Shown here one piece after another: positions 10,501 through 32,561 of a stretch of DNA of 64,000 nucleotides. The position numbers and the translations under genes were made by a program. The notes beneath the pieces were generated by a model. That model was not told the origin of the DNA and ran no database searches. It saw only the letters and a list, made by a program, of their open reading frames with translations. How positions within the stretch are numbered: the first letter of the stretch is position 1; each line of letters starts with the position of its first letter. This DNA comes from Azolla caroliniana (taxonomy: Eukaryota; Plantae; Polypodiophyta), in the NCBI GenBank assembly GCA_043228905.1, contig JBHGNT010000015.1:7626001-7690000 (forward strand). The letters are read 5' to 3'.

Positions 10501-11237
10501 TGTCAGGATCAGTACTAAGACAGAGAAGGAATTAGTACTAAAAGATGAGGATTAGTACTAAGAGAGGTGTAGAACTCTCGAGAGAAGGAAAGAGTGAGCG
10601 AGAGAGAGAGCTAGAGAGATAGAGAGAGAGAAAGGGTGAGAGAATGATGATAAAAGATATATATTATGTGAAGAGAGTGTACAATAGTAGCTAGGAGGCT
10701 TAAGACTAACGTTGAACCGATTAGGTTCGAAAAAATGCCGTGTGCCTCCTTTTATAGTGTTCTCAGGAGTACTCCTGAAGTTTCTAGAATGTCCGAGAGA
10801 AATCGGGAATATACATCAATTTTCTATAATAAAACATAAATGAAAATAATATTTTATGTATTACAATGTGTGGTCTAATGGTCAAGAGCTCGACCCATGT
10901 AGCATAAGGCCATGGGTTCGAGTCTTGCCATATCATGACACTTATCCCCCTTTTAAAACAACGAGTGTCACAAGTCGTTTTGGATTGAGGACCCGGTTTG
11001 TCTGGATATTGACGATGGAAGTCTTCAAGAAGAGCACGAGCATTTGTCACATTCTCTATCGGTTCCCAAGTACGCTCACTGGGACTATATCCTAGCCAAT
11101 CGACTAGATAGTAGAACTTGTTGCGAACAATCTTGGAATCAAGGATGGCGGCAACCTCGTACTCAGGTCCATCTTCAATTTCAATCAAGGGTGGAGGCTG
11201 TGTAATACGTCATGGGATGGTGCTCTCTTGATAGGAC
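10501..11237 (-). mobile_element. 3' end of a Tcn1-like chromovirus (chromodomain, PPT, 3' LTR)
   Basis: Chromodomain YEVAAILDSK..YYLVDWLGYSPSERTWEP, PPT at 10941-10955, LTR 10501-10940 (TGTCATG...CTGACA). Same family as 24684-29966. Confidence 0.92.
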
Positions 11238-11786
11238 TTGCCATCACTCGGTTTGGGGCCTTTCTTGGCCGGTTCGGACTTCGTTCCCGAAGATCCACCC
11301 TTCATCCTTTCCGGCCCGCCTGAAGAACCCCGTTACGCAGTACGGGTACAATGAGTACATGGCACATCACTATGCGTACATGACCAAAGTAGCGGAAGTG
11401 TGTGTGCCGGAGAGCTACACAGAAGCAACAAAGGACGCAAATTGGTGTGCCGCTATGGAAGAAGAAATGCGGGCACTCGATGCCAACGACACATAGGACC
11501 TCGTTGACCCTCCCCGACACTGTAAACCAATCGGTTGCTAATGGATGTACAAGGTAAAGTACAATGTTGACGGTTCGGTTAACCGGCACAAGGCCCGGTT
11601 AGTGGCACAGGGATATGCTCAGACCCACGGAACCGACTACGGCGAGACCTTCGCTCCGGTAGCGAAGATGATGAAGATTCGTGTGGTACTGGTAGTTGCC
11701 GCGGCAAGGGGGTGGCATCCTCACCAGATGGATGTGAAGAATGTGTTTCTTCAAAGCGACCTTCAAGAAGAGGTCTTAATGATCCA

Positions 11787-12220
11787 TGTTACCGGCCGGC
11801 AAAGGAGTCCAGAGTGGGAAACGGAGAGCTAATTAAGTAGTAGGAATGTGGTTGTAATTAAGCTATGAGTGTGGACGGACGGACCGGAATCGGTATGCCG
11901 TTCCGGATCCGGACCGATCCCGAACAGGTGCGGATGGCACCGTTTTGTAATACAGACCGGAAACCTATTTAAAGGCCCGGATACAATGTAATAGTTAGCG
12001 GTTAATTAATGAAAGCTTAAGCGTTGTTATCTCTCTGGGTTAATTGCCGTTCTGTCTTAATTGTTATATCTTACGCGTGTTATGAAAGACGATCCTAATA
12101 AGTAACTTAATTAAGTCGGATTAAGCGTTGAAGTCTAATCTGGTTGCCGTAACACCCTTTGGTGAAGTGTCTCCCGTAGACACCCTGTGTTAGGCCATTG
12201 TCCGGCCCGAAGAGTTAACA
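11787..12220 (+). repeat. 5' LTR of the Gypsy element
   Basis: TGTTAC...TTAACA, near-identical to 21152-21585. Confidence 0.97.
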
Positions 12221-12273: not shown

Positions 12274-14200
12274 ATGTCTAGATCAACGCACGACCTGGTT
12301 ACAGATCGAACTCGATGCCTTGCCGAAAGGCAAAGGAGACGCGAGGCTTTCCAGCAAGCGGCGCAGGAAATTAGAGCGGATCGCTCGTTTTCCAACGTAA
12401 TCCGGAGAGTAACGGAGGACTCCCTCTGGTTAAAACAAACATCGCACCCGGACGACGGCAACAGCCTAAGCAGCCTCCGGGAAACCGAATCCCTTCTCCA
12501 CATGTTGGCAAACGGAGAAGGCGAAGCAGAGGCCTTTTCAGCATATGAATCGGACTCCGAAGGGGAATACAACGTGCACACGAACTACCGTAGCAGCAAC
12601 GAAACCCCGGGCGGACCGGAGGACGAAGGATCGGATACCTTACCGACACCGGAACCGGACCCGGAAGTGCTAATGCTGGAACCCTCGGAACCAGCAGAGG
12701 AAGAACGACCTCCGACACCGGAAGTCGAAGAGGAGAGGCCTCCGTCACCAAAGGAAGAGAAACAACCGACACTGGAATCAAATCGGGAAAGACCATCGAC
12801 ACCAGAGAAAATTCCGGAACGAGCACCAACACTACCAGCCCGGACGACGACATGCCGTTCCAGTACTCCAAGTATAGAGATGATCCGGACGCGAAAGCTC
12901 ATGTGCACGCCTTTGAACAGACATGGGAAGCCAACCATGTGTCCCAGCGATTGACCCCAGAGGAAGAAGAACGTTCTAAGATAGCGGAATTTGGCGTCAC
13001 ATTGGAGGGACCAGCAGCAAGATGGCGCCGGACGCAGGACCCGATTTAAAAGCTAAATTCATGCATTTTTTTCAAAAGGAGGTGGACCAGACCGTAATGG
13101 TAGGCTTATTTTATACCATCCGGCAAGAGGCAGGGGAGAGCATTCCCCAATTTGCCAGCCGGTTTCAACGGATGCATAGTCAGCTTGCCCGTGCACCCCC
13201 GAAGGAGGAATTACGGACGATATTCCTAAACGCGCTCCGGGAACCCCTACGCACGGTTTGCACGGTAATCGATTTCCGCACAAGTACCATCGACCAGGTC
13301 ATTGACCGGGTGAGAGAGATGGAAAAGACAAGCTCCTGGCTCACACTAGGAGCACTTCAACGGGCGTTACCGTCCGATGAAGACCTCCAGTTTCGGCAAG
13401 CAATACAGTGCACAACCTGCTTGAATTCCAGACACTCGGCTCTAGAATGCACTATGAGGACGCAATGTGTAATCTGTCAATCCAAGAGCCATATGACGGA
13501 TAGGTGCGAGTATAATCTGTTGAATCGGCAAGCACCGCCCGTCCGACAAATTGAGCCACGCAGTAGCAGGGATGAAGAAGACGAACGCTGGCGGCGAATG
13601 GACCGTGACCGACCGGCACAGGAGGTCCGGTATGGCGATCGACGGGAAAATGATGTCCGGTACGGTGATCGGCTAGATAACAATGACCGGCATGATCGGT
13701 ACCAGGATTACAATAGACGATACGAACAGTACGACCGGGAGCACTCCCCCGGGTATCGTCAGCAACGGGAGAAATACGGCAGATATAACGGGAAACCCTG
13801 TCAAGAGTACCGTAATAAGAAGAGCTATAACAAAAAATGGCATTTTAAAAAAGGCAGCTACCCCCGAGATCCGGAACAAGGAGCTCCAAGTAGCCAATCG
13901 GTACAAAACCCCGCGCGTACCGTAGGACCTACCCCGGGTACAATAGACAATGCCGAATCTAGCAATACCCGGAAAGCCTACTACTACTACTGCCGACAGG
14001 AAGGCCATTATAGTAACCAATGCCCGGTGTAGAGCTATGAAAAACGACAGGCGGTAAATATGGTAGTCCCGGAGGTGGCAGACCTGCAGCAGGTGACCTC
14101 AAGGTCGACGGGCATGGCCAAAGAATGGGAGACACAGGAGACCATCCGGAAACAAGCAACGGAATGGGTAAAGAAAGCAAACGAGCAGAATGTCACAGAC
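12274..14200 (+). pseudogene. Gypsy gag (frameshifted) with zinc knuckles
   Basis: YRDDPDAKAHVHAFEQTWEAN, GPAARW, IRQEAGESIPQFASRF, CVICQSKSHMTDRC and a degenerate YYYCRQEGHYSNQC knuckle. Confidence 0.9.
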
Positions 14201-17200
14201 TTACAGCAGCAAAAGGAGAACACCGCAGGGCTTGCCGGCGGTAGTCACTCCGAGAACGTTACCACTAGGAAGACTCCTACAACTCGTGCCAAGATTCACG
14301 GAAGGACTGAAGACGACCATGACGGCAGGAGAACCATCACCGGCACCGGTACTCTTCTCAAATCCGGAGGAGGGACCAACAGTGGTAGATACCAGCAGTC
14401 TGGTAATCACTGCCATTGTAAAAGGGAAAGAACTCCCCGACACAGTTATAGACGGAGGCTCTGGGGTAAATGTAATAAGCCTCCGGACATGTGATGACCT
14501 AGGAATCCACGAGTGGGAGCCGTGTCCGTTCTGGTTGCGGATGGCCGATACAAGCTCAGTGCGGCCGACAGGATTAATACGGAAATTAGAAGTCACCGTC
14601 GGCGGTCATACATTTCACATCTCGGCCGTAGTGCTACAATTACAGGCACAAGGCGCATACCCGCTATTGCTGGGGCGGCCATGGTTGAAAACGGCACATA
14701 TCAAACAGAATTGGCGAAAAAATATAATTACCTTCCGGCGAGGAAAAGCCAAGGTACGGGTATGAACACAGCCAAGGACGAGCACTGGCAAGGAATGTAC
14801 ACCGTTGTATGCGGAATACGTCAACATGCTAGAAGGGTTAGCGGACGAAGAAGAAGCTCAATACCTGCAGGAAAACCCGAAGATCATACCCCTCTTCGAA
14901 ATTGACATTGCCGAAGCCGTAGCACCATACCTACCGCAACCGGAAGAGGCGGAAGCAGAACCGGATAAAGACGCAATCCGGGAGTTACGGCAAGCGCAGG
15001 AAGCGTTGGAACGGGAAATGGCCGTTTCACAACGCGTAAAAGCATCGCAACTGGAAGAGGTGAATTTAGGCACCACGGACGAAGCAAAACCGGTGCACAT
15101 CGCCAAGGAGATGAAGTCCGGAGACAAAACGGCGATGATAACACTTCTCACGGAATTTCGCGATGTATTCGCCTGGTCATACGAAGACATGCGAGGACTC
15201 GACCCTCAGTTATACCAGCATCAAGTGCACTTGAGCAAGGACGCAAAACCAGTGGCACAAAGACGGTACCGGATGAATCCCAATTACGCCGCCAAGGTCA
15301 AGGAAGAAATCGACAAACTGCTAAGAGTTGGCTTTATCCGTCCGGTAAAGAAAGCGACATGGCTGAGCCCGATCGTAGTCGTACCGAAGAAGAACGACAA
15401 AATTCGAGTTTGCGTGGACTACCGGAAACTCAATGCGGCTACGGTAACGGATGCGTTTCCACTTCCGTTCACAGATGGAGTGTTGGATGCCGTCGCCGGC
15501 CATGAGGTCTATAGCTTCCTAGACGGATTCAGCGGGTATAATCAGATCCGGATGCACCCCGACGACCAAGAGAAAACGGCATTCGTCACCGAATGGGGGG
15601 TGTTTGTGGCCGTGGTGATGATGTTCGGACTCAAAATGGCACCGGCAACATTTCAACGAATCATCATGGAAATCTTTGGTGGATATATACCGGCTTTTAT
15701 GCAGGTTTTCCTTGACGATTTCGCCGTCTATAGCCGGGAGGAGGACCATTTTCAGCACCTCCGTCTTTGTCTAGAAAAGTGTAGAGCGTACCGGCTAAGC
15801 TTGAATCCGGCAAAGTGTGTATTTGGCGTGTCCAGTGGAACCTTATTAGGACATATTGTGAGCCAGGAAGGTATTGTGAGCCATATTAGAAGCACCGGCG
15901 CCGGTAACAGCAAAGGCATTAAGCCGGTTCTTAGGCCAGATCCGGTGGCACAGTCGGATGCTCCGATACTTGGCCGACCTGGCTACACCGTTGCATGCCG
16001 CCGTACATCGCACACCATTCCAGTGGGCCGATACTGAGGATAGGGCGTTTAAGGCCCTCAAGGTACTATTGTCGCAGGCACCGGTAGTACAACCTCCGGA
16101 TTGGAGTAAAGAATTTCACGTGTTCGTGGACGCCTCTGACATCGCAATCGGAAGCGTACTGATGCAGCTTACGGAACCAAAGTGGTACCGGCCAGTGTAC
16201 TATGCCAGCCGGAAGCTATCCCAAGCAGAATGGAACTACTCTACTACGGAATGGGAAGCCCTAGGAATGATCTACAATGTGACAAAGTTTCGGCACTATT
16301 TATTGGGAAGGAAGTTTTCCTTCCATGTAGATCATTCGGCACTCCTTTACCTAGTGTCCAAGGTGTCACTCACCGGCAAATTGGCCCGGTGGACCTTATT
16401 GTTACAGGAGTTCGAGTTTGAAATATTCCACCGACCCGGTATACAGCATGCCGTAGCGGATTACTTAAGCCGATTGTAGTCCGGAGAGACGGGGGACGGA
16501 GTACCGGATGAGTTTCCGGATGCGGAGCTGTTTTGAGTCACTACGGAGACGACAACAAATGAGATAGTGGCCCAGGAAGACAAGTGGCTCACAAATATGC
16601 ACCAGTTTCTGAGCACAGGACTGCCTCCGGAAGAGCTGAACCGGGACGAATGCAAACGCCTGGCGGTGCAAAGCCGACATTTCTGCTTACTGCAAGACAC
16701 ACTGTACCACTAGGGCGCGGATGGCATATGGAGACGGGCGGTGCGCAGCGATGAAAAGGAACTGAGACGGAGGGAAGCCCACTGTGGAGTTGCCGGAGGT
16801 CACTATGCCGGAGATGCGATGGCCAGAAAAATATGGCAAAGTGGCCTATGGTGGCCAACGACATTAAGAGATGCGGTACGGTACGCAAAAGAATGTGACC
16901 TATGCCAAAGAATGGGCCAGCCAACGGAGCAGGCTCGTATGCCACACCAGCCGGTACTACCACTCGAGCCATTCCACAAGTGGGGGCTGGACTTTGAGGA
17001 CCGTTCAAGCCACCGACAATGAGAACGGGTAATCGGTACGTTATCGTTGCTACGGATTACTGCACGAAATGGGTGGAGGCCAAAGCTTTACGGGATAACA
17101 CCGCTGCGTCAACGACAAAGTTTCTATATGAGTACATCTGGTGCCGTTACGGATGCCCGATTGAATTGATAAGTGACCAAGGGGGGCACTTTCTCGGACA

Positions 17201-17942
17201 AGTAGTGGAAAGCCTAACGACCTTCTATGCCGTGGTCCACAAACGAAGCACACTTTACTATCCACAGGCGAACGGATTAGCAGAATCAACAAACAAGACG
17301 CTCCAGAATATCCTTCGGAAGATCGTCAATGAGAACTGGACGGATTGGGACACAAAGCTACATAGCACGCTTTGGGCATACCGGACGGCATACAAAACGA
17401 GCATCCAAACAACACCGTTCCGGTTGGCGTTCAGACTCGAGGCGGTCATGCCGGTAGAATTCCAAGTACCTAGCTTACGGATCCAGCTACGAGAACGGCT
17501 GAACGAGAAGGAGTCGGAGACAATAAGGTTGACAGCGCTGTGTGAGCTCGAGGAACAACGGTTGGCTAGCATCCTACATTTAGAATTGGAGCAACGGCAA
17601 CGGAAAGCATTCGTCGACCGGCACAGGAAAGGTAAGGAAAAAATGTTCGCAATCGGCAAACCGGTGTTAGTATTCCAAACCCGGATGGGCAAGATGCCAG
17701 GTAAACTACGGTTTAGATGGACCGGACCATATTGGCTAACACGGGAGTATAATGGGTCCTACCAGTTAGGGACACTTGCCGGCGAAGTGCTAGGCAAATG
17801 GGTCAACGGATTCCGGTTAAAGGCATATAGAGGACCGATGCCTAAGAACCCGTTTGAGCAAAGGACCGACGGCAGAGACGGAAAGCCGGGAACCGGAGAG
17901 AATGAGGCCGGTAAGGGTCCGAGAGGACCAACGGACAAGTGA
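14190..17942 (+). pseudogene. Gypsy pol: protease, RT, RNase H, integrase (several stops and frameshifts)
   Basis: VIDGGSG; WLSPIVVVPKK, FLDGFSGYNQI, FLDD; FVDASD..HVDH; H-H-C-C zinc finger, WGLDF, ISDQG, PQANGLAE, WTGPY. Confidence 0.97.
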
Positions 17943-18100
17943 CGTTACACTAATAATAATAATAACTGAAAAAAAGAAAGAAAAAAAAAACAATCATGCA
18001 AAAGCGAGGAATGAATGGAGGAAAGAGTGAGGAGCGAAAAGGTACGTAGTGGGCATTTAAAGCGCCACCACAGGACATAATGCTATTTTAAGTACGCGAC

Positions 18101-21097
18101 ATGCACACACTCGAAAAAGGCGCCAGAATGCACAGACAAAAACCACTGCACGTAGAGACCCTCTACTTTCGCGAACCCAGGAGCACAGAAGCACCAAGAC
18201 GCTGCAAGATCATCAGACGAGAACCTGCGCACAGAGAACCCCTGCCTTCTGAACTCTCTCTTTCTCAACCCCACTCTCATCACCATCCATCCTCGCCACC
18301 GCAATCCGACCCCGACACAGAAATGGACCCGCAAACGCTGTCGGAAGCCGCCAAGACATGGCTGAAGCAACACGGGCTCGAGGGCTTCTTGATGATGATG
18401 GAAGTACCGCCACACAAAGAAGCCGACAAAGTGATCAAGGAAATCGATACAGAGGTCATAACGGCAGAGGCGATTCGAGCGTTAACAGGCCTTCCGGAGG
18501 GAGGCATACTCACGATCGACAATCCAACCCCGGAGCAACTCATCAGGTATTTTGGTGAGTACTCTCTAGCCATCAAGGGCTACCGGACACAGGGCGGCGG
18601 AGATATGCTGTTCCGCGAAATTGCTCGTGTGCTCCATGAATACGGCCACGTGTACCCTAGACCTCCTGTCATGCTGCAAAACCGGGCAGGGATGATCATC
18701 ACCACCTATGAAGGGATCAAGGTGGATTGGCCGGTATTGATCGCAGACGGGTTGTGTGCGGCGATCGAGATCGTCAGAGGCAAAGACGGGAAAGAAGGCC
18801 GAGGCGGACGAAGGATATGGCATGCCGTAACGCAGTGGCTCACCTTGCTGGTGCCACCCGTTCAGACCGTCCAGCCCAAGAAGTGAGGAAGAGTGGCGAA
18901 CGGCACCCCAAGGACGGCTTCCAAACGACAACAGTTGTTGGCCTCTAAGGCCAGTAAGGGAAAGGCGGCGGATGCAGAACAGGCGGCAGCAGGAAGCAGC
19001 AGCCGGAAGCGCCCAACGGAGGCGCAGGAGGAACCACCGGCACGGCCCGTAATGGTCACACTCCGCCGACCGGTGAATCGAGAAGTGGACCCCTTGGCGG
19101 CAAAACTCAATGCCAGAGCTCAGGAGGAGGAAATAGAGGAGGAACCTACGGAGCACCTCCAGCGACGGTCGTCGGTAAGGACCGTTGAGACAGCCGGGAA
19201 ACGTTCGAACCCTCAGACGGAGGGAACACCGGCTCCCCATACTGAGACTCCCACGCCAAGGAAGGAACCGGAACCGGTGCAGATGGCACCAGAAACAGAA
19301 GCCCCGGCACCACCGGCAACACCGGCAAGTCCCATCCCGCCAGAGCCGGAAAGGTCACTGCAGCCTCCCTCGGTCAGCCAAGAAGAAGCGCAAGGGGAAC
19401 CAGGACAGCAGGATGGTCCACGGGCAGAAACGGAACTGCAACTCGGCGCAACCAGGCGGGACTACCCCTCTACAAGTGAGCCCATCTGTGAAACCTCCGT
19501 GCAAGCACAACAAGGCACCGGTAGCCTGTGGCTCCGGTGGATAGGCGAACAGATAGCCGGAGCAGTGGGGTATATTGAGGCGGAAGAAAGAGCGCACAGC
19601 GAACGGTTGCTCGTCACAACCGAACAACTAGAGACGGCCCGGTCCAGAATCCGGTGCCTTGAGAAAGACTTGGATCAGGTCACGACAGAGATGGCCAAAA
19701 TACGGATCCAATCACCAGTGACTCCGGTAAGTGTACAGAATAAAGAAACGGAACGACCTGTACATAGCAATAAGACCCCAGCAACGGAAACCGTTTCGGC
19801 GAGAGATGCGGCGCAAGCTCAGGAGCTTGCGGAATTGAGAGAGGAACTTGCCACACAAGAAGCGCTAAGGAGCCGTGAACGAGAATTGAAGACGGCGGCC
19901 GAAGCCGAATTAAAGAAGACTGCTGAGAACCTCCGTCGGGCAGAGGAGAGCCTCCAGAAAGGCCATCAAGCGTACGACCAGCTAAAGGAGGAGAAAGACA
20001 AAGTGCTGCAGGAAAAGGACAAGCTGCGGAAAACGGCGGAAACAGAGATGGAACGGCTAAAGGAAGAGCTCCACCAGCAGAAGGACCGCGAGGACCGGGC
20101 CCGTCGTCAGATCAACGCATGGCTCAACCAAAAGACGGATGATTTTGAGCACCTACACCGGGACTACAAACGGCTGGAAACGGAGCATAAAGAACGGATG
20201 GTCGAGCTCCAGCAGGCAGTTGATCGGGCCGCGATGGCGATCGCCGACGAACGGGCGGAAAATACAAGACGCTTGGATGAGGCGGAGAAGGTCCGGATGG
20301 AACTCCAGAGGCAACAACAGGAAGACAAAGAGAGAGCGTCAACAGTATTGCAGAAATTACAAAGCGCATATCAAAGGCAATTGACGCATTACAAGGCACA
20401 GGCGGAGGACAACATCAAAATCATCAAACAACTGAAGGAGGAACGACAAGCGGCGGAAACCAAATCACAATTGGGAACGAGCCGGATTCAGTCCATCCTA
20501 CGGGCATGGCTGAATCAGACAAAACACTTGATTGATGAAAGCTCCGTAAAATGGTGGACAAAGTGGGCACAAAACGCGGCGGAACTCCAATTGCAACAGG
20601 CGGATGTGGCAAACCAGCGGAAGGAAGGAGATGACTGTTATACGTTGACTTCCGAGGACTTCACCGCCATACGGGACGAGTTGGCCGACGACTTCCAAGT
20701 CCTGGCAGATGAACAGCTGGCGCAGGTCAAGCAGCTCGTAGCTCAGCTGGATGATGATAGGCTGGACGCTCAAATCTAGTTTGAAAGCTACGAGCGGTCC
20801 CGGGTGCGGGAAGAAAAAGCATGGGAAGCGGCAATGGTTAACCTTAGTGATGAGGAACCGTCGCCGGCTGAGGGCCAGCCGGGAACCAGTCAACCGGAGA
20901 CCACTACGATGCAGGGAGCAAGGACGGAGATGCCGGTGTCAGAGCCACAATCGGAGGAGCAGCCGCAGCAACCACCAACGGACCCGCCGCAGCAGACTGC
21001 AACAAAGCAGCAACAACAACAACAACAACAACCACTTCCAGATGAACCATTGGAGCCTCTCGAACAAAGCATTCTGGACATTTTGGACGAAGAATAG
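18101..21097 (+). pseudogene. Extra retrotransposon ORF: N-terminal plant-mobile-domain-like segment, disordered linker, long coiled coil, polyQ tail
   Basis: ORFs 18101-18886, 18893-20779 and 20804-21097 are in one frame, broken only by a TGA (18884) and a TAG (20777). Likely start is the ATG at 18323. Confidence 0.85.
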
Positions 21098-23810: not shown

Positions 23811-26800
23811 ATACCTTGCATCTGGGCATATCCCTTTGCCACAAGTCTTGCTTTATGTCTACTAACATTTCCATTGGAATCATGCTTTGTCTTGTAGACC
23901 CATTTGCAACCTACAACATTTTTTCCTTCCGGTAACTTTACCAAATCCCATGTTCTGTTTTTAGCTAATGCATTTATTTCTTCTTGCATTTCATTCACCC
24001 ATTTCTTATCAGATTTTGCTTCATCAAAACTTTTTGGATCAAATATTTGTACCACGTTAGACATGTATGCATAGTGCATAGCCATATATGTGTTATAACC
24101 AAATCTTTCAACAGTCTTTTTCTCTCTATCTGATCTTCTCAGTTTTTTATTTGCATCTTTCATTGCTTTTTCCATACCAGGGATTTTCAAGGCTCGTATA
24201 CGAAGCTCATCATCCAATGATGTATCTGAATCTACATCTTCCATGTTTCCAGACCCATCATCAAGCATTTCATATTCTGCCATCTCCTATTTTCCCTTTC
24301 TATCATCATATTTTTTGTGTCCTGGTTTTTTCCACTCCATGCATTAAATTTCGATTTACTACCTGAGCGTCCAGATGTTCTAGTACACTCTATTGATGTG
24401 AAACTTTGCTGTCCAACATTGTTTCCATCTCTATGGCAATCTCTTCCTTTTTCAGATTTATCCTTGTCTTCATTTTAATAATCGTCATCAGTTTCTACAT
24501 TTCCTTTTGGGTTGTACCAACTGCCCAACTCATCAAATATTAAATCATGGCTTACCACTATCTTTTTTGTCAACAGGTTATAGCATCTATACCCTTTCAC
24601 TCCTCTAAATATCCAATAAGAACACATTTTTCAGCTTTTGGATCAAGCTTACTTCTTACTTTAGCAGGTACATGGACATAGGCTGTCATGTCTCAAACCC
24701 ATGACCTTATGTTATATGGGTCGAGCTCTTGACCATTAGACTATATGTTGTAATACGAAGGATATTATTTTCATTTAAGTTATACTATAGAAAATTGATG
24801 TATATTCCAGATTTCTCTGGAACATTTTAGATACTTCAGGAGTACTCCTGTGAACACTATAAAAGGAGGCACAAGGCATTATTTCAAACCAAATCGGTTC
24901 ACACCACTCTTAAGCCTCCTAGCTACTACTGTATATTATCTTCACATAATATATATCTTTTGTTATCATCATTCTCTCTCTCTCTCTCTCTCTCTCTCAG
25001 TATTTCCTTCTCTCGAGAGTTCTACACCTCTCTTAGTACTAATCTTCATCTTTTACTACTAATTCCTTCTCTATTCTAGTACTATTCCTGACAGTTTGAA
25101 TAGATTTCTCACCTCTTTCCTCATCTTCCGTGTATCTTCTTACGTTTCCCTCCCTTCATACTAATATCTTATTCCTCTTTCCTCTCATCCTATGGCCACT
25201 ATTAATGCTCAAGAATATCAATCCGTTTTCTCGGAGCTGCAATGCTTGAAAGAGAAGTTCCTTGCTTTGGAACAAAAAAATCAACAGTTGTTAGGGGTCT
25301 TCAACAAATCTCCTTAGAAAAGCAACAAACGCAACAACAACATGGGGAACTAGTGTTACGTGTGCAACAACTCGAAGCAACCATAGTAACGATGCAACAA
25401 GAAGGACCCAGTACGCAAGGGATTCATAAAGAACCCAAGATTGGCCTTCCCATGAAATTCGATGGAACGTGATCGTAGTTTAGAGGATTCCTTAATTAGG
25501 TACGATTATTCATTCAAATGCATCATCCCCGATAAGCCACTAATGCATTACGAGTGGGTTTAGTAGGCACGTTGTTAAGTGGCTTTACTTTGGCATGGTT
25601 CGCTCCGTTGTTAGAAAATGAATCTCCTTTACTAAACAATTTTGAAGAGTTTTTAAGCGAGTTTAAAGCTTGTTTTGGAGATATTGATAGCATAAGGACA
25701 ACAATAAACAAAATCCGACGATTTGGTCAAGGTGATCGTCCAACGTCCGCATACGTTGTAGATTTCTGCCTACTCACCTCTGATATCCCCTAGGATGACC
25801 AAGTACTAATGGAGCAATTTCGTTATGGTCTACGTAACGATGTCAAGGGTTTACCCTTGACCTTCCCTGAAGAACCAAAGCCACTGATAGAAGCAATCAG
25901 TCGTGTGGTGAGATGCAACGACCGTCTTTTTGAACGTCGTTCGGAACGTCAGTTCAGATGCCAAGAGCAAGATCAAAGCCCACCTACGCCTTTTCCAAGG
26001 GATTCATATAATGCGTCTCTAGTGAATACTCCAACTCCGATGGAAATTGACACTATATGTCATCGCGGACCATTATCGGAAGAAGAAAAGTAGCGACGCC
26101 GAGCAAATCTACTATGTCTTTATTGTGGTGGACCAGGGCATATTGCAGTGAATTGTTCCCATAGGCCAAGAAGATAGGTAAACCAAATAATTGCTTGTTC
26201 TAATTGTATTAAACCTGAGTCTATTTCAGTAGGAATATCTGGTAGTCCTAATAGTACTAATAGCCCAAATCTATTGAACAGATTTGATGTCCTTAGTCAG
26301 TTAGAAGAAGAGTTAAATAACTATGTCCAGCCAAAATAGGAGTCGTTTGGTTGGACGACCCTAGATCTGTGCATCCCATTAGTGGTTCCATTCCCTGTAA
26401 GCAAGTTAGCAATGTGTTCTTAGCCCAAGTAAGAGTTAACTTTACTAAAAATACCTCTCCAATACATGTCTCAGCACTCCTAGATTCCAGAGCTAATTCT
26501 TGCTTCATGGATAGGAATTTTACCCAAGCTCATCAGATATCCCTGAGAAAACTCCCGTGTCCAGCCTCTATAGTAGTCATTGATGGTCATCCCATTGCTT
26601 CCGGAAATATCATAGAAGAGTTAGAGCCTGTTAATATTTTCCTAGATAATTTAGCGTGTGACTAGTATCATTTAATATAATTAGTATCCCAGAACATCCC
26701 ATTGGTTTGGATTACCATGGTTCGAATTACATAACCCAGACATAGATTGGAGAACAAGAGAAATTCGGTATTGACAAGGCCGAGGATCTACTCATAAGAT

Positions 26801-29800
26801 TGCAACCATTTCGCTACATCAATTGCGTGAGGAAGGATGCAAGGAAGAAATGATTCTCTTCGTAGTATTAGTAAAACCTTCCAACACCACTAAAGATGAG
26901 TCCACCATTCAACTTCTAGAGAAGTATCGTGATTATGCCGATGTGTTCGATAAAGTACAAGCCAATACGCTTCCTCACCATCGACCATAGGATTGTCCCA
27001 TCGATTTACACCCGGGAAAAGAACCACCATGGGGACCGATCTACAATTTGTCACCAACCGAGCTAAAACTCCTTCGAGCCTATATAGAGGAGAATTTGGA
27101 AAATGATTTCATTCGATATTTGAAATCCCAGCCGGTGCACCCATTTTTTTCGTCAAGAAAAAGGATGGATCACTTCATCTCGTCGTAGATTACCGTGGCT
27201 TGAATAAGGTCACCATCAGGAATAGGTATGCACTTCTTCTACGTCAAGTTTTTTACAACAGATCAATGGTGCAAGGTTCTTCACAAAGATTGACTTACGA
27301 GGAGCATATAACCTTGAACGGATCCGACCAGGAGATGAATGGAAGACCGCGTTTCGCACCAGATATGGGCTCTTCGAGTATATGATCATGCCATTCAACG
27401 TCACTAATGCGCCAACAGTCTTCCAACACATGGTAAATGATATATTCCGAGATCTCTTGGATGTTTTTTTAATCATCTATTTGGATGATGTACTGGTTTA
27501 TTCCACGTTCATTGCGAGATGTGCAATGTTTTTTAGGCTTTGCCAATTTCTACTGCAAGTTTATACATGATTACTCAAAGCTTGTTCTGCCTCTCACATA
27601 GCTTACCAAGAAGGGACAATCGTTCGTTTGGTCTGAAGAAGCAAACATGGATTTTGAGAGTCTTAAGAAGGCATTTACATCAGCTCCTATTCTAGGTCAT
27701 GTTGATCCGGAAAAACCATTCATCATTGAAGTAGATGCGTCGGATTTCGCCTTGGGTAGCATTCTGTCATAACAAGGCGATGATGAAAATCTACATCATG
27801 TGGATTTCCACTCACGCAAGTTTGACGTCGTCAAAATCAACTATAAAATTCATGATAAGGAGCTATTAGCAATAGTGGACTCTTTTATGCAATGGAGGCA
27901 TTTTCTAGAGGGATCTTCTCATCAAGTCACCGTATTCGGTGATCACAAAAACCTTGCCTACTTTCAGAATGCTCATCTGTTAAATAAACATCAAGCCCGG
28001 TACGTCCAATTCCTCACTCGTTTCAACTTCAAAATTACATATTGTCTGGGGAAGAAACAAGGGAAGGTAGATGCATGTCACGACGCTCGTATCTAGCACT
28101 GCATCTTGGCAAGCCAGCTTTCTATAACCAAAATCAAGTAATCCTAGGATCGGCATGACTGCAAGCAACGCAAGTCTTTGGTGTGCCTTAGGATTCCCAC
28201 GTTATAGATACCATATGTGAGGACTTGAAGATAGATGCTTTCACCCAAGCCATAGTAGCAAAAATTGATCCCTCTCGAGCACCTTGTTCACAGTCGCAAC
28301 AACCAGGTAAGGACTATCGACAATTCGAATGTTATGATGGATTATTATTCTTTAAGAAACTCTTGTATATTCCTAATGGTTCTTGTCGCCTTCGAGTAGT
28401 CCAAAACTGTCATGACACATATACAGTTGGGCATTTTGGTAGTACTAAAACATTAGATTTAGTACAACAATCATTCTGGTGGCCCCATATGCAACACTTT
28501 GTCGAAGATTTTGTTCGGACTTGTGATACATGTTGTAGAAAAAAAATGCCAAGGCACCATCCATATGGTTTATTAAAACCATTACCAATTCCAAGCAAGT
28601 CGTGGCAATCCATTGATTTAGATTTCATCATAGATCTTCCGATCTCTAAGGGATTCGATGGGATCTTAATAGTAGTAGATCGATATACGAAGATGGCCCA
28701 TTTCCTGCAATGTACTAAGGAAATCTCCAGTGAGGAAATAGTCGAAATTGTCATGTGTGAAGTATGTCGGCATCATGGCCTTCCCGATAGTATCATCAGC
28801 GACCGTGGACCCTAGTTCATCTCGAAATTCTGGAAGCACCTCTTTAAAATGCTCAAGGTCACTTGTAACCTCTCCTCCCGCGGTGGTGTGTATTTGAAAC
28901 CCTAGAGTTACCCACAAATCCTTGCGGAGAGGATCGTTTGGAGTGGTTAGACAAGATACAAGGGGATTTATCTACTCATCTACAACAAGCTCAACAAACA
29001 CACAAGGATTATGTGGATCGTCATTGGCTTCCATCCAATTTTAACATTGGAGATCGGGTATGGCTACTACGACGACACATCAAGACTATTGGCCCATGCA
29101 AGAAGTTGGATTATCGGTGATTAGGTCCTTTCCGTATTATCGAAATAATTAATGATGTCGCTTTTCATCTCGATCTACTTCCATAACTTCAGATACATCC
29201 GGTGTTTCATAGTTCTCTCCTCGAACCCTATCAAGACAACACCATCCCAGGTCGTATTAAACAACCTCCACCCCCAATCGAACTTGAAGATGGACTTGAG
29301 TACAAGGTTGCGGCCATCCTCGAGTCAAGATTGTTCGCAACAAGCTCTACTATTTTGTCGATTGGCTAGGATATAGTCCCATCGAGCGTACTTGGGAACC
29401 AATAGAGAATGTGACCAATGCTCATGCTCTTCTTGAAGACTTCCATCGTTAATATCCAGACAAACCGGGTCCTCAATCCAATTGTGACACTCGTCGTTTT
29501 AAAGGGGGGATAGTGACATGATATGGAAAGACTCGAACCCATGACCTTATGTTACATGTGTTGAGCTCTTGACCATTAAACTATATGTTGTAATACAAAA
29601 GATATTATTTTCATTTAAGTTATACTATAGAAAATTGATGTATATTCTGAACTTCTCTGGAACATTCTAGAAACTTCATGGGTACTCCTGAGAACACTAT
29701 AAAAGGAGGGACAAGGCATTATTTCGAACCAAATTGGTTCAACGCCACTCTTAAGCCTCCAAGCTACTACTGTATATTTTCTTCACATAATATATATATT

Positions 29801-29809
29801 TTGTTATCA

Positions 29810-29844
<35 letters not shown>

Positions 29845-32561
29845 ATCGCTCTCTCTTTCCCTCTCTCTCTCACTCTTTCCTTTTCTCGAGAGTTCTACAC
29901 CTCTCTTAGTACTAATCCTCATCCTATAGTACTAATTCCTTCTTTGTCTCAGTACTATTCCTGACATAGGCAAGGCATCCAAACACTTTTAAGTGTCCTA
30001 AACTAGGTTTCCTTCCATAGAAACATTCTTCAGGAGTTACTTCATGTACTCCAGATGTTATACATCTATTTAGAATAAAGTTTGTTGTGTTTACAACTTC
30101 TGCCCAGTAATACAATTGCATATTTTTTTCAATCATCATGGCTCTTGCTATGTTCACCAGAGTTCCGTTTTTTCTCTCAACAACTCCATTTTGCTGTGGA
30201 GTATATTTACATGTAAACTATCTCCTTATTCCTTGATTACATAGAAAATCAGAAAATTCATTTTAGAAATATTCTCCTCCTCCATCAGATCTTAAACACT
30301 TTATTCTAGACCTGGCTTGCTTTTCTACCATGCATTTGAACTTACAAAAGCAATCAAATACTTCACTTTCCTCTTTCATGATGTAAACCCATGTTTTCCT
30401 TGAGTAATCATCAACAAATGTTGCATAAAACCTACATCCACTAATTGATGCATTTTTTGTTGGTCCCCATACATGCGTATGTACCAAATCCAACAAATTT
30501 TTGCTTACATGTCTTTCATCAGGGAAAGGCAACATGTTTTGCTTTCCATATTGGCATGCTTCACATATTTTTCTCATCTTACAGTCTTTCAACTTAGGCA
30601 GTCCAGCCACTGCATTTTTCCTCAACATATTTTTCAAGGTTTGCATATTTATGTGACCGATTCTTTTATGTCACATCTCCACATCTGAGATTACATTCAT
30701 TCCTTCTGCAAACATGGTTGTAATATTTTTAGGCATATCCACATCTATCACAAACATTCTTCCTTGTCGTTTTCCTTTTGCAATAAGCTTTCCCTGTTTC
30801 TCTGTAAAGCACCCACTTTGCTTAAACTTAACTTGCAATCCTTGCTCTACTATTTGTCCAACAAAAATAAGATTTTTTGCAAGGTTTGGCACATGCATAA
30901 CATTCAGCATATACTTTGTTTTCCCTTTTTCTTCCCACAATGGGATATCTCGAACATGCTCGATTGTATGAGTGGTGTTATGACCTGTCTTTACATAACC
31001 AAGAATCTTAGGTTCTCTTAGACTTTGAAACCAATTTGCATCTCCAGTCATATGATTAGATGCCCCAAAATCTACATACCACATATAATCTTCATTGCAT
31101 CTCTGTGAACATTCAGCCATTGTTGTTGTTTCATGTTGCATCACAAATGCACCATCTTTATCTCTTCCCTCTTTTTTCATCATTTTGCTTTTTATACCAT
31201 TCAGCCTGTGTATGGCCTGGTTTTCCACAATACCAACAACCACAATAATTCAAATAAGCTTGCTTACCTCTACCTCAATTGCTCCCCCTGCCTCTTATGT
31301 TGTTTCTTCCACTTGTAGCTTGTTGTCCTCTTCCTTGATAATTGTTGTTGGTTCTAGTTGAACCAAATCTTCCATGGCTTCTTCCTTGGCCTCTTCCAGC
31401 ACTATTGTAGAGGGCTTGGCCCTTAGTCTTAGAGTTTCCTTTGTTTACATCATCCATCTGACTTCTTTCTTCCACTACAAGCATTGAAACTATATTTAGA
31501 AAACTTGGGATACTATCCCTTGTGAGAATAGATGTTTTGAAGCTCTTATATTGAGGTCCTAAGCCTCTTAAGCATATTTCCACCATATCATCATCTTTCT
31601 ACCTTCACATTAATAGAAGCAAGTGACTCACATATGCTCTTTATTTTCAAAGCATACTCATTAACTGCCATCTTACCTTTTTCCAAGGTATTTAGCTCAG
31701 TCCTCAACTGAAGCTTTCTAGCCTTTGTGTTTATTGGAAACAATAGATTACCAAATTGTCCCAAGCTTCTTTTGGAAGCAAAGCATCTTGTACGTGTCCA
31801 AGCATCGAATCTGAGATGCTAAGTGACAACCAATGCAATACTTTCCTTGCCCCTGGATTCCATTCCTTAAATGCTTTAATCTGTGCAGCTGTTGCATTTT
31901 CTTTAGAGATCTCTAGAACCTCTTCTTGGTCTTCTTCAATGTAATCCCAGTATCCTTTTCCCATCAGAAAATTTTTCATTCTGAATTTCCACGCAAGGAA
32001 ATTGTTTTTGTCCAACGTTTCTGTGACTATTTGGCGTCCATTCTTAGCAACCATTCTCTCTTCAAAATTAGGGATTTTGCTACGATGAACTTCAGAGACA
32101 CCTCTCTGATTCAAACCAGCAACCAGAACCAAACTTCTTAGATTTATATTGTTCCTCTTTACAAGCAACTCTGCTTCGATACCATGTTATGAAGGTGCTC
32201 CGACTCTTCTTTGTGCACATTGGATGGTGATGTGCTGGATTGTTTAGTGTGCTCAAGACAGAAAAGGAAGGGGGGAGGAGACTTACCTCTGTAGCAACCC
32301 AAAAGCTTCTATTTCATTACACGCAGAGAAACCTCTCTCGTCAGCCTTCTCATACAACTACTCTCTTCCTCTCTCTTACTTTTTAACCTAAGTATATAAG
32401 TGACTTACATATGCAACTAATTAGTTGTGAGTATCTAATTAGTTGTGACTAGCTAAATAGTTGTTTTACTTGTATTCCCAATAAGCATCACATGCTTTTG
32501 TTGGGCTTGTTTCTTAACACTTATGACAACGATGTACGTGATTAATAGATCACCCTCAACA
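23811..32561 (-). mobile_element. Ty1/Copia family A copy 2 (5' LTR, PBS, gag, PR, INT, start of RT), split by the chromovirus
   Basis: LTR 32185-32561 (minus TGTTGAG...ATAACA), PBS TGGTATCGAAGC at 32173-32184, gag LDKNNFLAWKFRM, PR WYVDFGASNHMTG, INT CEACQYGKQ and LRSDGGGEY. Confidence 0.93.
24684..29966 (+). mobile_element. Full-length degenerate Tcn1-like chromovirus (Ty3/Gypsy)
   Basis: LTRs at 24684-25093 and 29514-29966, TSD TAGGC on both sides, PPT at 29501-29513. Sushi/Tcn1-type gag EPKIGLP.KFDG..LAW, PR ALLDSRAN, RT YLDD, RH HDKELLAIV, INT WWP..CDTC and ISDRG, chromodomain near 29290-29450. Confidence 0.95.

Follow-up and report, generated by a model that had tools for sequence, protein, structure and literature searches.

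Polymerase III (Pol III) promoters in long terminal repeats (LTRs) have so far been known from short, non-autonomous elements, in which they drive the element's own RNA. The nearest described system is Helenus, with TRIMp3, in which the LTR sequence is tRNA-derived and boxes A and B are conserved while tRNA function has been lost (PMC10886601, Kojima 2024). The LTR of the lycophyte Helenus-1_SMo, given in the supplement of that study, also has AGGTC before the B box, as does the unit described here (hereafter the cassette). However, Helenus elements are short (~0.3 to 1.3 kb), non-coding and tRNA-primed, whereas the elements studied here are chromoviruses of ~5.6 kb that encode gag-pol, prime themselves and have a separate TATA box. 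In addition, the tRNA-like part of Helenus lies on the sense strand in two of the supplement LTRs and is proposed to drive the element's own transcription, while the cassette is antisense and sits at the U3 edge (PMC10886601). The same paper argues that transcription of the autonomous partners has to rely on Pol II, and remarks in passing that part of a tRNA is present in "not a few" Repbase LTRs. Cassandra and Ajax TRIMs resemble the cassette in having an LTR-borne Pol III promoter, but theirs is 5S-derived (type 1), the elements are non-autonomous, and the Cassandra promoter drives its own sense transcript (PMC10886601). Helenus is thus a closer parallel than Cassandra, which the initial annotation of this locus had named.

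The elements themselves resemble the plant Tcn1 chromoviruses and, as far as descriptions can be compared, P. patens RLG1, with a chromodomain, a self-priming primer-binding site (PBS), Tf1/Sushi-like relatives and a very high copy number (PMC6317226, PMC2864245, PMC7466625). The self-priming arrangement has been reported for Tcn1 (PMC6317226), and RLG1 lies in heterochromatic islands yet is transcribed (PMC7466625). The term "polymerase III" does not occur in the main text of the Tcn1 papers (PMC6317226, PMC2864245), nor "tRNA" in that of the RLG1 paper (PMC7466625). In the literature on Tcn1 LTRs we found no account of such a unit, Helenus being the nearest, although subscription papers, Repbase notes and supplements may hold one. 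A third likeness is to the tDNA and ETC barriers of yeast and mammals, in which a TFIIIC site dominated by its B box separates a Pol II promoter from foreign chromatin; they belong to the host and their function as barriers has been demonstrated, whereas the cassette is transposon-borne and its barrier role putative (PMC13578239, PMC9540200, PMC11811891). Pol III barriers are known in yeast (PMC9540200, PMC13578239) and are stated to be undescribed in plants (PMC13578239).

The window analysed here is a 64,000-nt stretch of the Azolla caroliniana genome, in which the following features were assigned:

10501..10940, minus strand: 3' LTR of a truncated chromodomain Gypsy copy, an inverted repeat of the LTRs at 24684 and 29514 (~88% identity)
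10712..10722, minus strand: self-primer sequence complementary to the family PBS (11/11 complementarity in the full-length elements L163-L165, L381, L383 and L384)
10750..10757, minus strand: predicted TATA box of the element's sense Pol II promoter, judged by position (34 nt upstream of the self-primer in intact copies)
10829..10863, plus strand: AT-rich tract upstream of the cassette, by its AT content a candidate TFIIIB landing zone
10864..10936, plus strand: cassette in the tRNA register (positions 1-73), on the strand antisense to the retrotransposon (register table; 13 bits, E 0.22, with the host-tRNA covariance model)
10871..10881, plus strand: A box (T8 to G19), TGGTCTAATGG; T8 in 11/11 and A14 in 9/11 family rows
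10907..10911, plus strand: variable-loop positions 44-48, AGGTC in the family, with C at 10910 in the window copy; A44, G45, G46 and T47 in 11/11 family rows
10915..10924, plus strand: B box (G52-C61), GGTTCGAGTC; 19.0 bits with the position weight matrix (PWM), reached by 0/200 shuffles
10941..10954, minus strand: polypurine tract (PPT), by sequence just outside the LTR; its complement is the TTTT of the initial annotation
11012..11161, minus strand: chromodomain at the pol end (Pfam PF00385, E 3.7e-15)
24684..29966, plus strand: full-length decayed chromodomain Gypsy (Tcn1-like) element with reverse transcriptase, RNase H and integrase Pfam matches and the target site duplication TAGGC
24684..25093, plus strand: 5' LTR of this full element, with a shortened start; its minus-strand cassette has a mutated B box (C56 to T)
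29514..29966, plus strand: 3' LTR of this full element; cassette on the minus strand at ~29515-29588 with A and B boxes intact (A plus B match at 29583, minus; model match 12.8 bits)

The sequence bore out the basic claims of the initial annotation: boxes A (10871) and B (10915) at a distance of 44 nt; a position antisense at the U3 edge of an LTR (10501-10940, minus strand); and recurrence in both LTRs of the element at 24684-29966, with a shortened start of the LTR at 24684. The two LTRs of that element are 90.7% identical to each other, and the B box of the 24684 copy reads GGTTTGAG. Canonical A and B boxes at tRNA spacing were found twice in the 64-kb window (10871, plus; 29583, minus), both times inside the chromodomain Gypsy LTRs, against a mean of 0.01 matches per window in 100 third-order Markov simulations. 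Several other features were seen around the truncated copy. Directly upstream of the PPT, at 10955-10982 in the window and likewise in family copies, is a short inverted repeat that reads AAAACGAC / GTCGTTTT in the latter and whose core is retained in several subfamilies. From our reading of the open reading frames at 11236-12086 and 12980-20779, a Copia-like sequence appears to interrupt the truncated chromovirus, and beside it there appears to be a large Gypsy element that is not a chromovirus and has an additional ORF region at its 3' end.

The elements are gag-pol chromoviruses of ~5.6 kb, as at L163, which has open frames of 404 and 1194 aa and identical LTRs, and the named homologues are retrotransposon proteins from fungi, amphibians, fish and algae. 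In families A, C and D, 11/11 nt of the PBS are complementary to the element's own LTR, at a site 32-34 nt after the TATA box. This separate TATA box and the self-primer lie ~120-250 nt further into the LTR than the cassette. Because the elements self-prime, the cassette is excluded as a primer or PBS, and since it faces outward it is unable to produce genomic RNA. Lying backwards in autonomous, self-priming elements with a TATA box of their own, it must therefore have another role than the promoters of the short elements.

Taken as a tRNA, the window copy is poor. ARAGORN found nothing in the 64-kb window or in the 30 nearest copies, and Rfam gave no tRNA match at E≤10 for the window copy, a check that the initial annotation had proposed for a family LTR consensus. 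With a covariance model trained on 16 host tRNA loci, the two intact cassettes were nevertheless the top two matches in the window (13 bits, E 0.22; 12.8 bits). In the tRNA register, with G-U pairs allowed, the window copy pairs in 5/7 positions of the acceptor stem, 3/4 of the D stem, 2/5 of the anticodon stem and 4/5 of the T stem. The acceptor stem did not hold up as a feature of the family. The G that gives the fifth acceptor pair occurs in only 2/30 nearest copies, the 5' acceptor strand differs between subfamilies without a compensating change of the 3' strand (70 copies), and 5 nt of the 3' strand are missing in the youngest subfamily. The 91-nt RNA of the window was predicted to fold as a single long hairpin (-34.3 kcal/mol, z -5.05), with no cloverleaf. 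A functional tRNA gene was rejected, as the copy falls below the covariance-model and ARAGORN thresholds, and acceptor and anticodon stems are unconserved across families (34/77 and 23/55 pairs).

At 10897-10899 of the window, family A has ATG at anticodon positions 34-36. Fern genomes reportedly contain thousands of dispersed His(ATG) tRNA predictions, and LTRs of the family A type could be a source of these. For Azolla, >7,500 tRNA genes have been stated (PMC13578239). Local alignment to the host tRNA set, which is incomplete, gave no consistent best isotype for a donor tRNA: Arg(TCT) was best for family A, and Ile, Lys, Gln or Gly for others. The host genome also holds large single-isotype tandem tRNA arrays (Lys-TTT, Arg-TCT, Gly-GCC, Ile-TAT and Thr-TGT) with many decayed copies (L031-L080 and L196-L225; G000 C5, C22, C4, C11, C9 and C2).

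The window's own family (family A) is abundant, with 1,705 genome occurrences of an exact 24-mer around the LTR TATA box, and at least 3,174 genome sites for a pattern of variable-loop motif plus A-box core, compared to 1 for the reversed control. We sampled 70 copies through the TATA anchor, and hence independently of the cassette, and counted changes on a tree for 63 of them, 7 being dropped as their LTR start was not found by pattern. The boxes had 4 internal and 23 terminal changes, compared to 52 and 265 for the rest of U3 (p=0.54), so that within this family they are not better conserved than flanking U3, a comparison the initial annotation had also called for. Canonical A plus B boxes were found in 29/63 copies and the B box in 49/63. 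CpG decay in the B box (12/60) did not differ clearly from that of other LTR CpGs (55/183, p=0.14), and gave no clear sign of protection from methylation. In the youngest A subfamily G10 has changed to A while the B box is intact. In an older subfamily, A' (L227-L255), the B box ends GAATCC and is separated from the LTR end by a longer spacer, and the hairpin over the same region is differently encoded. On the window's family alone, the initial reading would nearly stand refuted.

The picture became broader among divergent families. The genome was searched with a chromodomain profile, blind to the LTR, which returned 150 matches; LTR starts were read behind 70 of these, of which 4 could not be parsed, and families B, C, D, E, G and H were uncovered in this way. 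A metagenome scan by pol alignment added 79 loci. We then scored the antisense strand of the first 130 nt of each LTR start with a PWM trained on host tRNA boxes, against 200 dinucleotide shuffles. Of 44 scorable LTR starts (7 others were too short, and a few of the negatives have an LTR start guessed by pattern), 18 scored above all 200 shuffles, which corresponds to 11 families; 2 were borderline (p 0.05-0.06) and 24 negative. The cassettes scored 13.7-32.1 bits, compared to at most 12.9 bits for the sense-strand control and at most 11.8 bits for the next 130 nt. In family C the host-tRNA model gave 28 bits (E 1e-5), and RF00005, whose cut-off is 29, gave 25.2 bits in a match over the whole model; the metagenome families L305, L306, L302 and L299 scored 17-19 bits at the LTR start.

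Two well-supported clades hold these families, one with A, L299, L307, L302, L305, L306 and G (support 0.98) and one with B, C, D and E (0.99), in a tree from which 27 loci were left out for low coverage, all of the loci it takes in being unnamed. Pol identity of representatives, computed partly from decayed copies, is ~47-59% between the clades and 68-76% within clade 1, and U3 is poorly alignable among the eleven families. The antisense tRNA-type promoter is, on these alignments and scores, a clade-wide pattern and not a one-family accident; the original observation is confirmed as real and is broader than first described. Because the node uniting the two clades has a support of only 0.51, one gain followed by losses and two separate gains are both compatible with the tree. 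The unit is absent from the related lineages L315, the L325/L353/L368 group and the L311 group, and degenerate in H and L313, and is therefore dispensable. Possible decayed remnants of a B box were seen ~12 nt from the LTR edge in L353, L368, L389 and L313 (all negative or borderline), hinting at ancestral presence followed by loss. In the metagenome locus L346 (pol 47% identical), the antisense motif GGTTCAAATC lies beside the LTR edge, in a place too close to the contig end for scoring. In viral contigs the chromodomain query found no relative, and the alignment query three distant loci.

Across the eleven families, T8, GG18-19, AGGTY44-48, GTTCRA and the AT-rich upstream tract are retained. 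In the register table, which omits D and gives A' a row of its own (11 rows for ten families), T8 and AGGT44-47 are present in 11/11 rows and A14 in 9/11; as the table is anchored on the boxes, part of this invariance is built in. In an unanchored MAFFT alignment, 9 columns of the first 130 nt were invariant and 12 nearly so, compared to 2 and 1 in the next 130 nt. The T8-G53 spacing is 44-45 nt in 9/11 families, and the B box lies 6-40 nt from the LTR end. Pairing summed over the family rows was 34/77 (44%) for the acceptor and 23/55 (42%) for the anticodon stem, and 66-67% for the D and T stems, which overlap the boxes. The claim of a captured tRNA or SINE head is therefore sustained as to a tRNA-type origin and retention of the boxes, both visible only across divergent families, while a conserved cloverleaf is not.

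The cassette could be a passenger, an ancient tRNA or SINE head in U3 that persists merely through the slow evolution of LTR ends. The lack of excess conservation within the window's family, the decay of its CpGs like that of neighbouring ones, and its absence or decay in several related lineages all fit such a history. Yet over the 11 families the letters and the spacing of the boxes have persisted, whereas the sequence that separates them, and the 6-40 nt from the B box to the LTR end, have undergone turnover. The changes at positions 56-57 point the same way: at the family level TTCGA has changed to TTCAA, which is still canonical (B, C and L299), and TTTGA occurs in a minority of copies only. 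We regard a mere passenger as improbable and consider that the cassette is very probably a selected type-2 Pol III promoter element.

The upstream region is in line with a promoter element of this kind. The 35 nt upstream of the cassette have an AT content of 0.69-0.94, above that of the next 100 nt upstream in 10/10 families tested, and the values at 21 host tRNA loci are 0.63-0.86. An AT-rich or TATA-like upstream region has been described as a feature of plant type-2 Pol III promoters (PMC13578239). The retained positions also coincide with known TFIIIC contacts. In yeast, G47 is among the bases that TFIIIC contacts, and binding or transcription is affected when positions 44-47 are changed (PMC11724288), which would account for the otherwise odd retention of variable-loop letters. 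The A box is weak in families D and E. Family D has LTR pairs that are 99.7-100% identical and TTCGA in 33/39 copies, with an A box that is weak and displaced. Of the features of a type-2 promoter, the order and spacing of the boxes and the AT-rich upstream region were thus found, and a close T4 terminator was not. The TTTT at 10951 that had been annotated is present, but it lies outside the LTR beside the PPT, and T4 was found in only 3/21 3' LTRs (picked by pattern out of the 70-copy sample). No common terminator was seen, the first antisense T4 being 36-992 nt from the 3' LTR edge (20 loci), which does not support the proposal of a defined ~90-nt transcript ending at the T-run of the PPT. 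Poly(A) libraries X8-X10, which bear a different species label, had 11-16 reads each, with no clustered starts or ends; of the other public runs, X1 is probably DNA and X3 yielded 3 contigs.

These data bear on whether the product matters as RNA. The cassette might be a functional Pol III gene, with selection acting on its antisense RNA, which could mimic the tRNA elbow or, through its complementarity to U3 and the PPT, modulate packaging, silencing or reverse transcription. The conserved letters of the cassette are also the D/T-loop tertiary residues of tRNA, which speaks for an RNA function, as do the retention of the A box, the AT-rich upstream tract and the exact tRNA spacing in most families, the 7/7 acceptor stem of family C and the strong hairpins (z -3.5 or lower) of A, B and C; the fixed T8-G53 spacing and the D and T stems at 66-67% would likewise fit a constraint on RNA. 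However, there is no common fold, with z above -2 in 8 families, there is no common terminator (36-992 nt), transcripts from 5' and solo LTRs would enter random flanks, and the A box is eroded in the youngest lineages. A selected antisense RNA is accordingly a possibility that we rate as unlikely, although better placed than the passenger.

The folds also bear on a further idea, that a replication hairpin at the start of U3 is selected and the likeness to tRNA is coincidental. It draws on the long hairpin of the window copy (z -5.05) and on the similar hairpin, of different sequence, in subfamily A'. Strong hairpins are, however, confined to A, B and C; 8 of the 11 box-keeping families have none (z above -2), and family C matches RF00005 over the entire model. 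The cross-family folds largely refute a selected hairpin, which we take to be very improbable.

In all families 6-40 nt separate the B box from the end of the cDNA, a position that would suit an action on unintegrated cDNA or on targeting: bound TFIIIC could tether the pre-integration complex, or elements that target Pol III could use the LTR as a landing pad. Among 326 overlapping LTR-start matches, there was no recurrent nested insertion upstream of the A box, and the 69 breaks in the alignments came from satellite-type derivatives, mismatches between subfamilies and deletions, which argues against a landing pad. In addition, the chromodomain is already a likely targeting device. We consider an action of this sort quite improbable, slightly more so than a passenger.

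A binding site that acts as DNA agrees better with the two trends noted above: the B box has outlasted the A box in the youngest lineages (D and young A), which favours a role at the DNA level, and the lack of a conserved terminator fits such a role better than a defined RNA. Given the identity of its motifs with structurally mapped contacts, the cassette would probably be bound by TFIIIC, and TFIIIB would usually be positioned on the AT-rich upstream tract. The resulting complex at the LTR edge might form a barrier between the element's Pol II promoter and silent chromatin. By analogy with tDNAs, such a barrier is the reading that we favour and may quite possibly be the main purpose of the cassette. 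More tentatively, we propose a clade of autonomous chromoviruses in which each LTR has an outward-facing tDNA insulator, so that the chromodomain would send the element into heterochromatin, as is likely, while TFIIIC/TFIIIB would keep its Pol II promoter open. Against the barrier counts the decay of B-box CpGs, which is like that of other CpGs, and the nulls within the window's family together with the lineages that lack the unit indicate that any benefit is modest or conditional.

If the proposal is true, the genome would contain thousands of mobile TFIIIC sites, and the cassette would be the first Pol III-type chromatin barrier in plants. It would offer a concrete answer to how heterochromatin-targeting retrotransposons stay expressed, and it makes the question of plant TFIIIC barriers approachable by single-base changes in the B box. 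Thousands of sites per genome could also affect TFIIIC titration, genome folding and the annotation of tRNA genes.

Finally, copies of the cassette were also seen outside intact LTRs. An AT-rich dispersed repeat carries them in tandem, each together with the LTR edge and ~35 nt of the upstream tract and with T-rich DNA behind it. The period is 333 nt at L252:1-1551 and ~240-350 nt at L231, L233, L236, L245, L248, L249, L254, L256, L397-L399 and L405. This repeat may be a second mobile element that has captured the unit. At L397-L399 and L405 it adjoins a shortened LTR without the Pol II promoter region.
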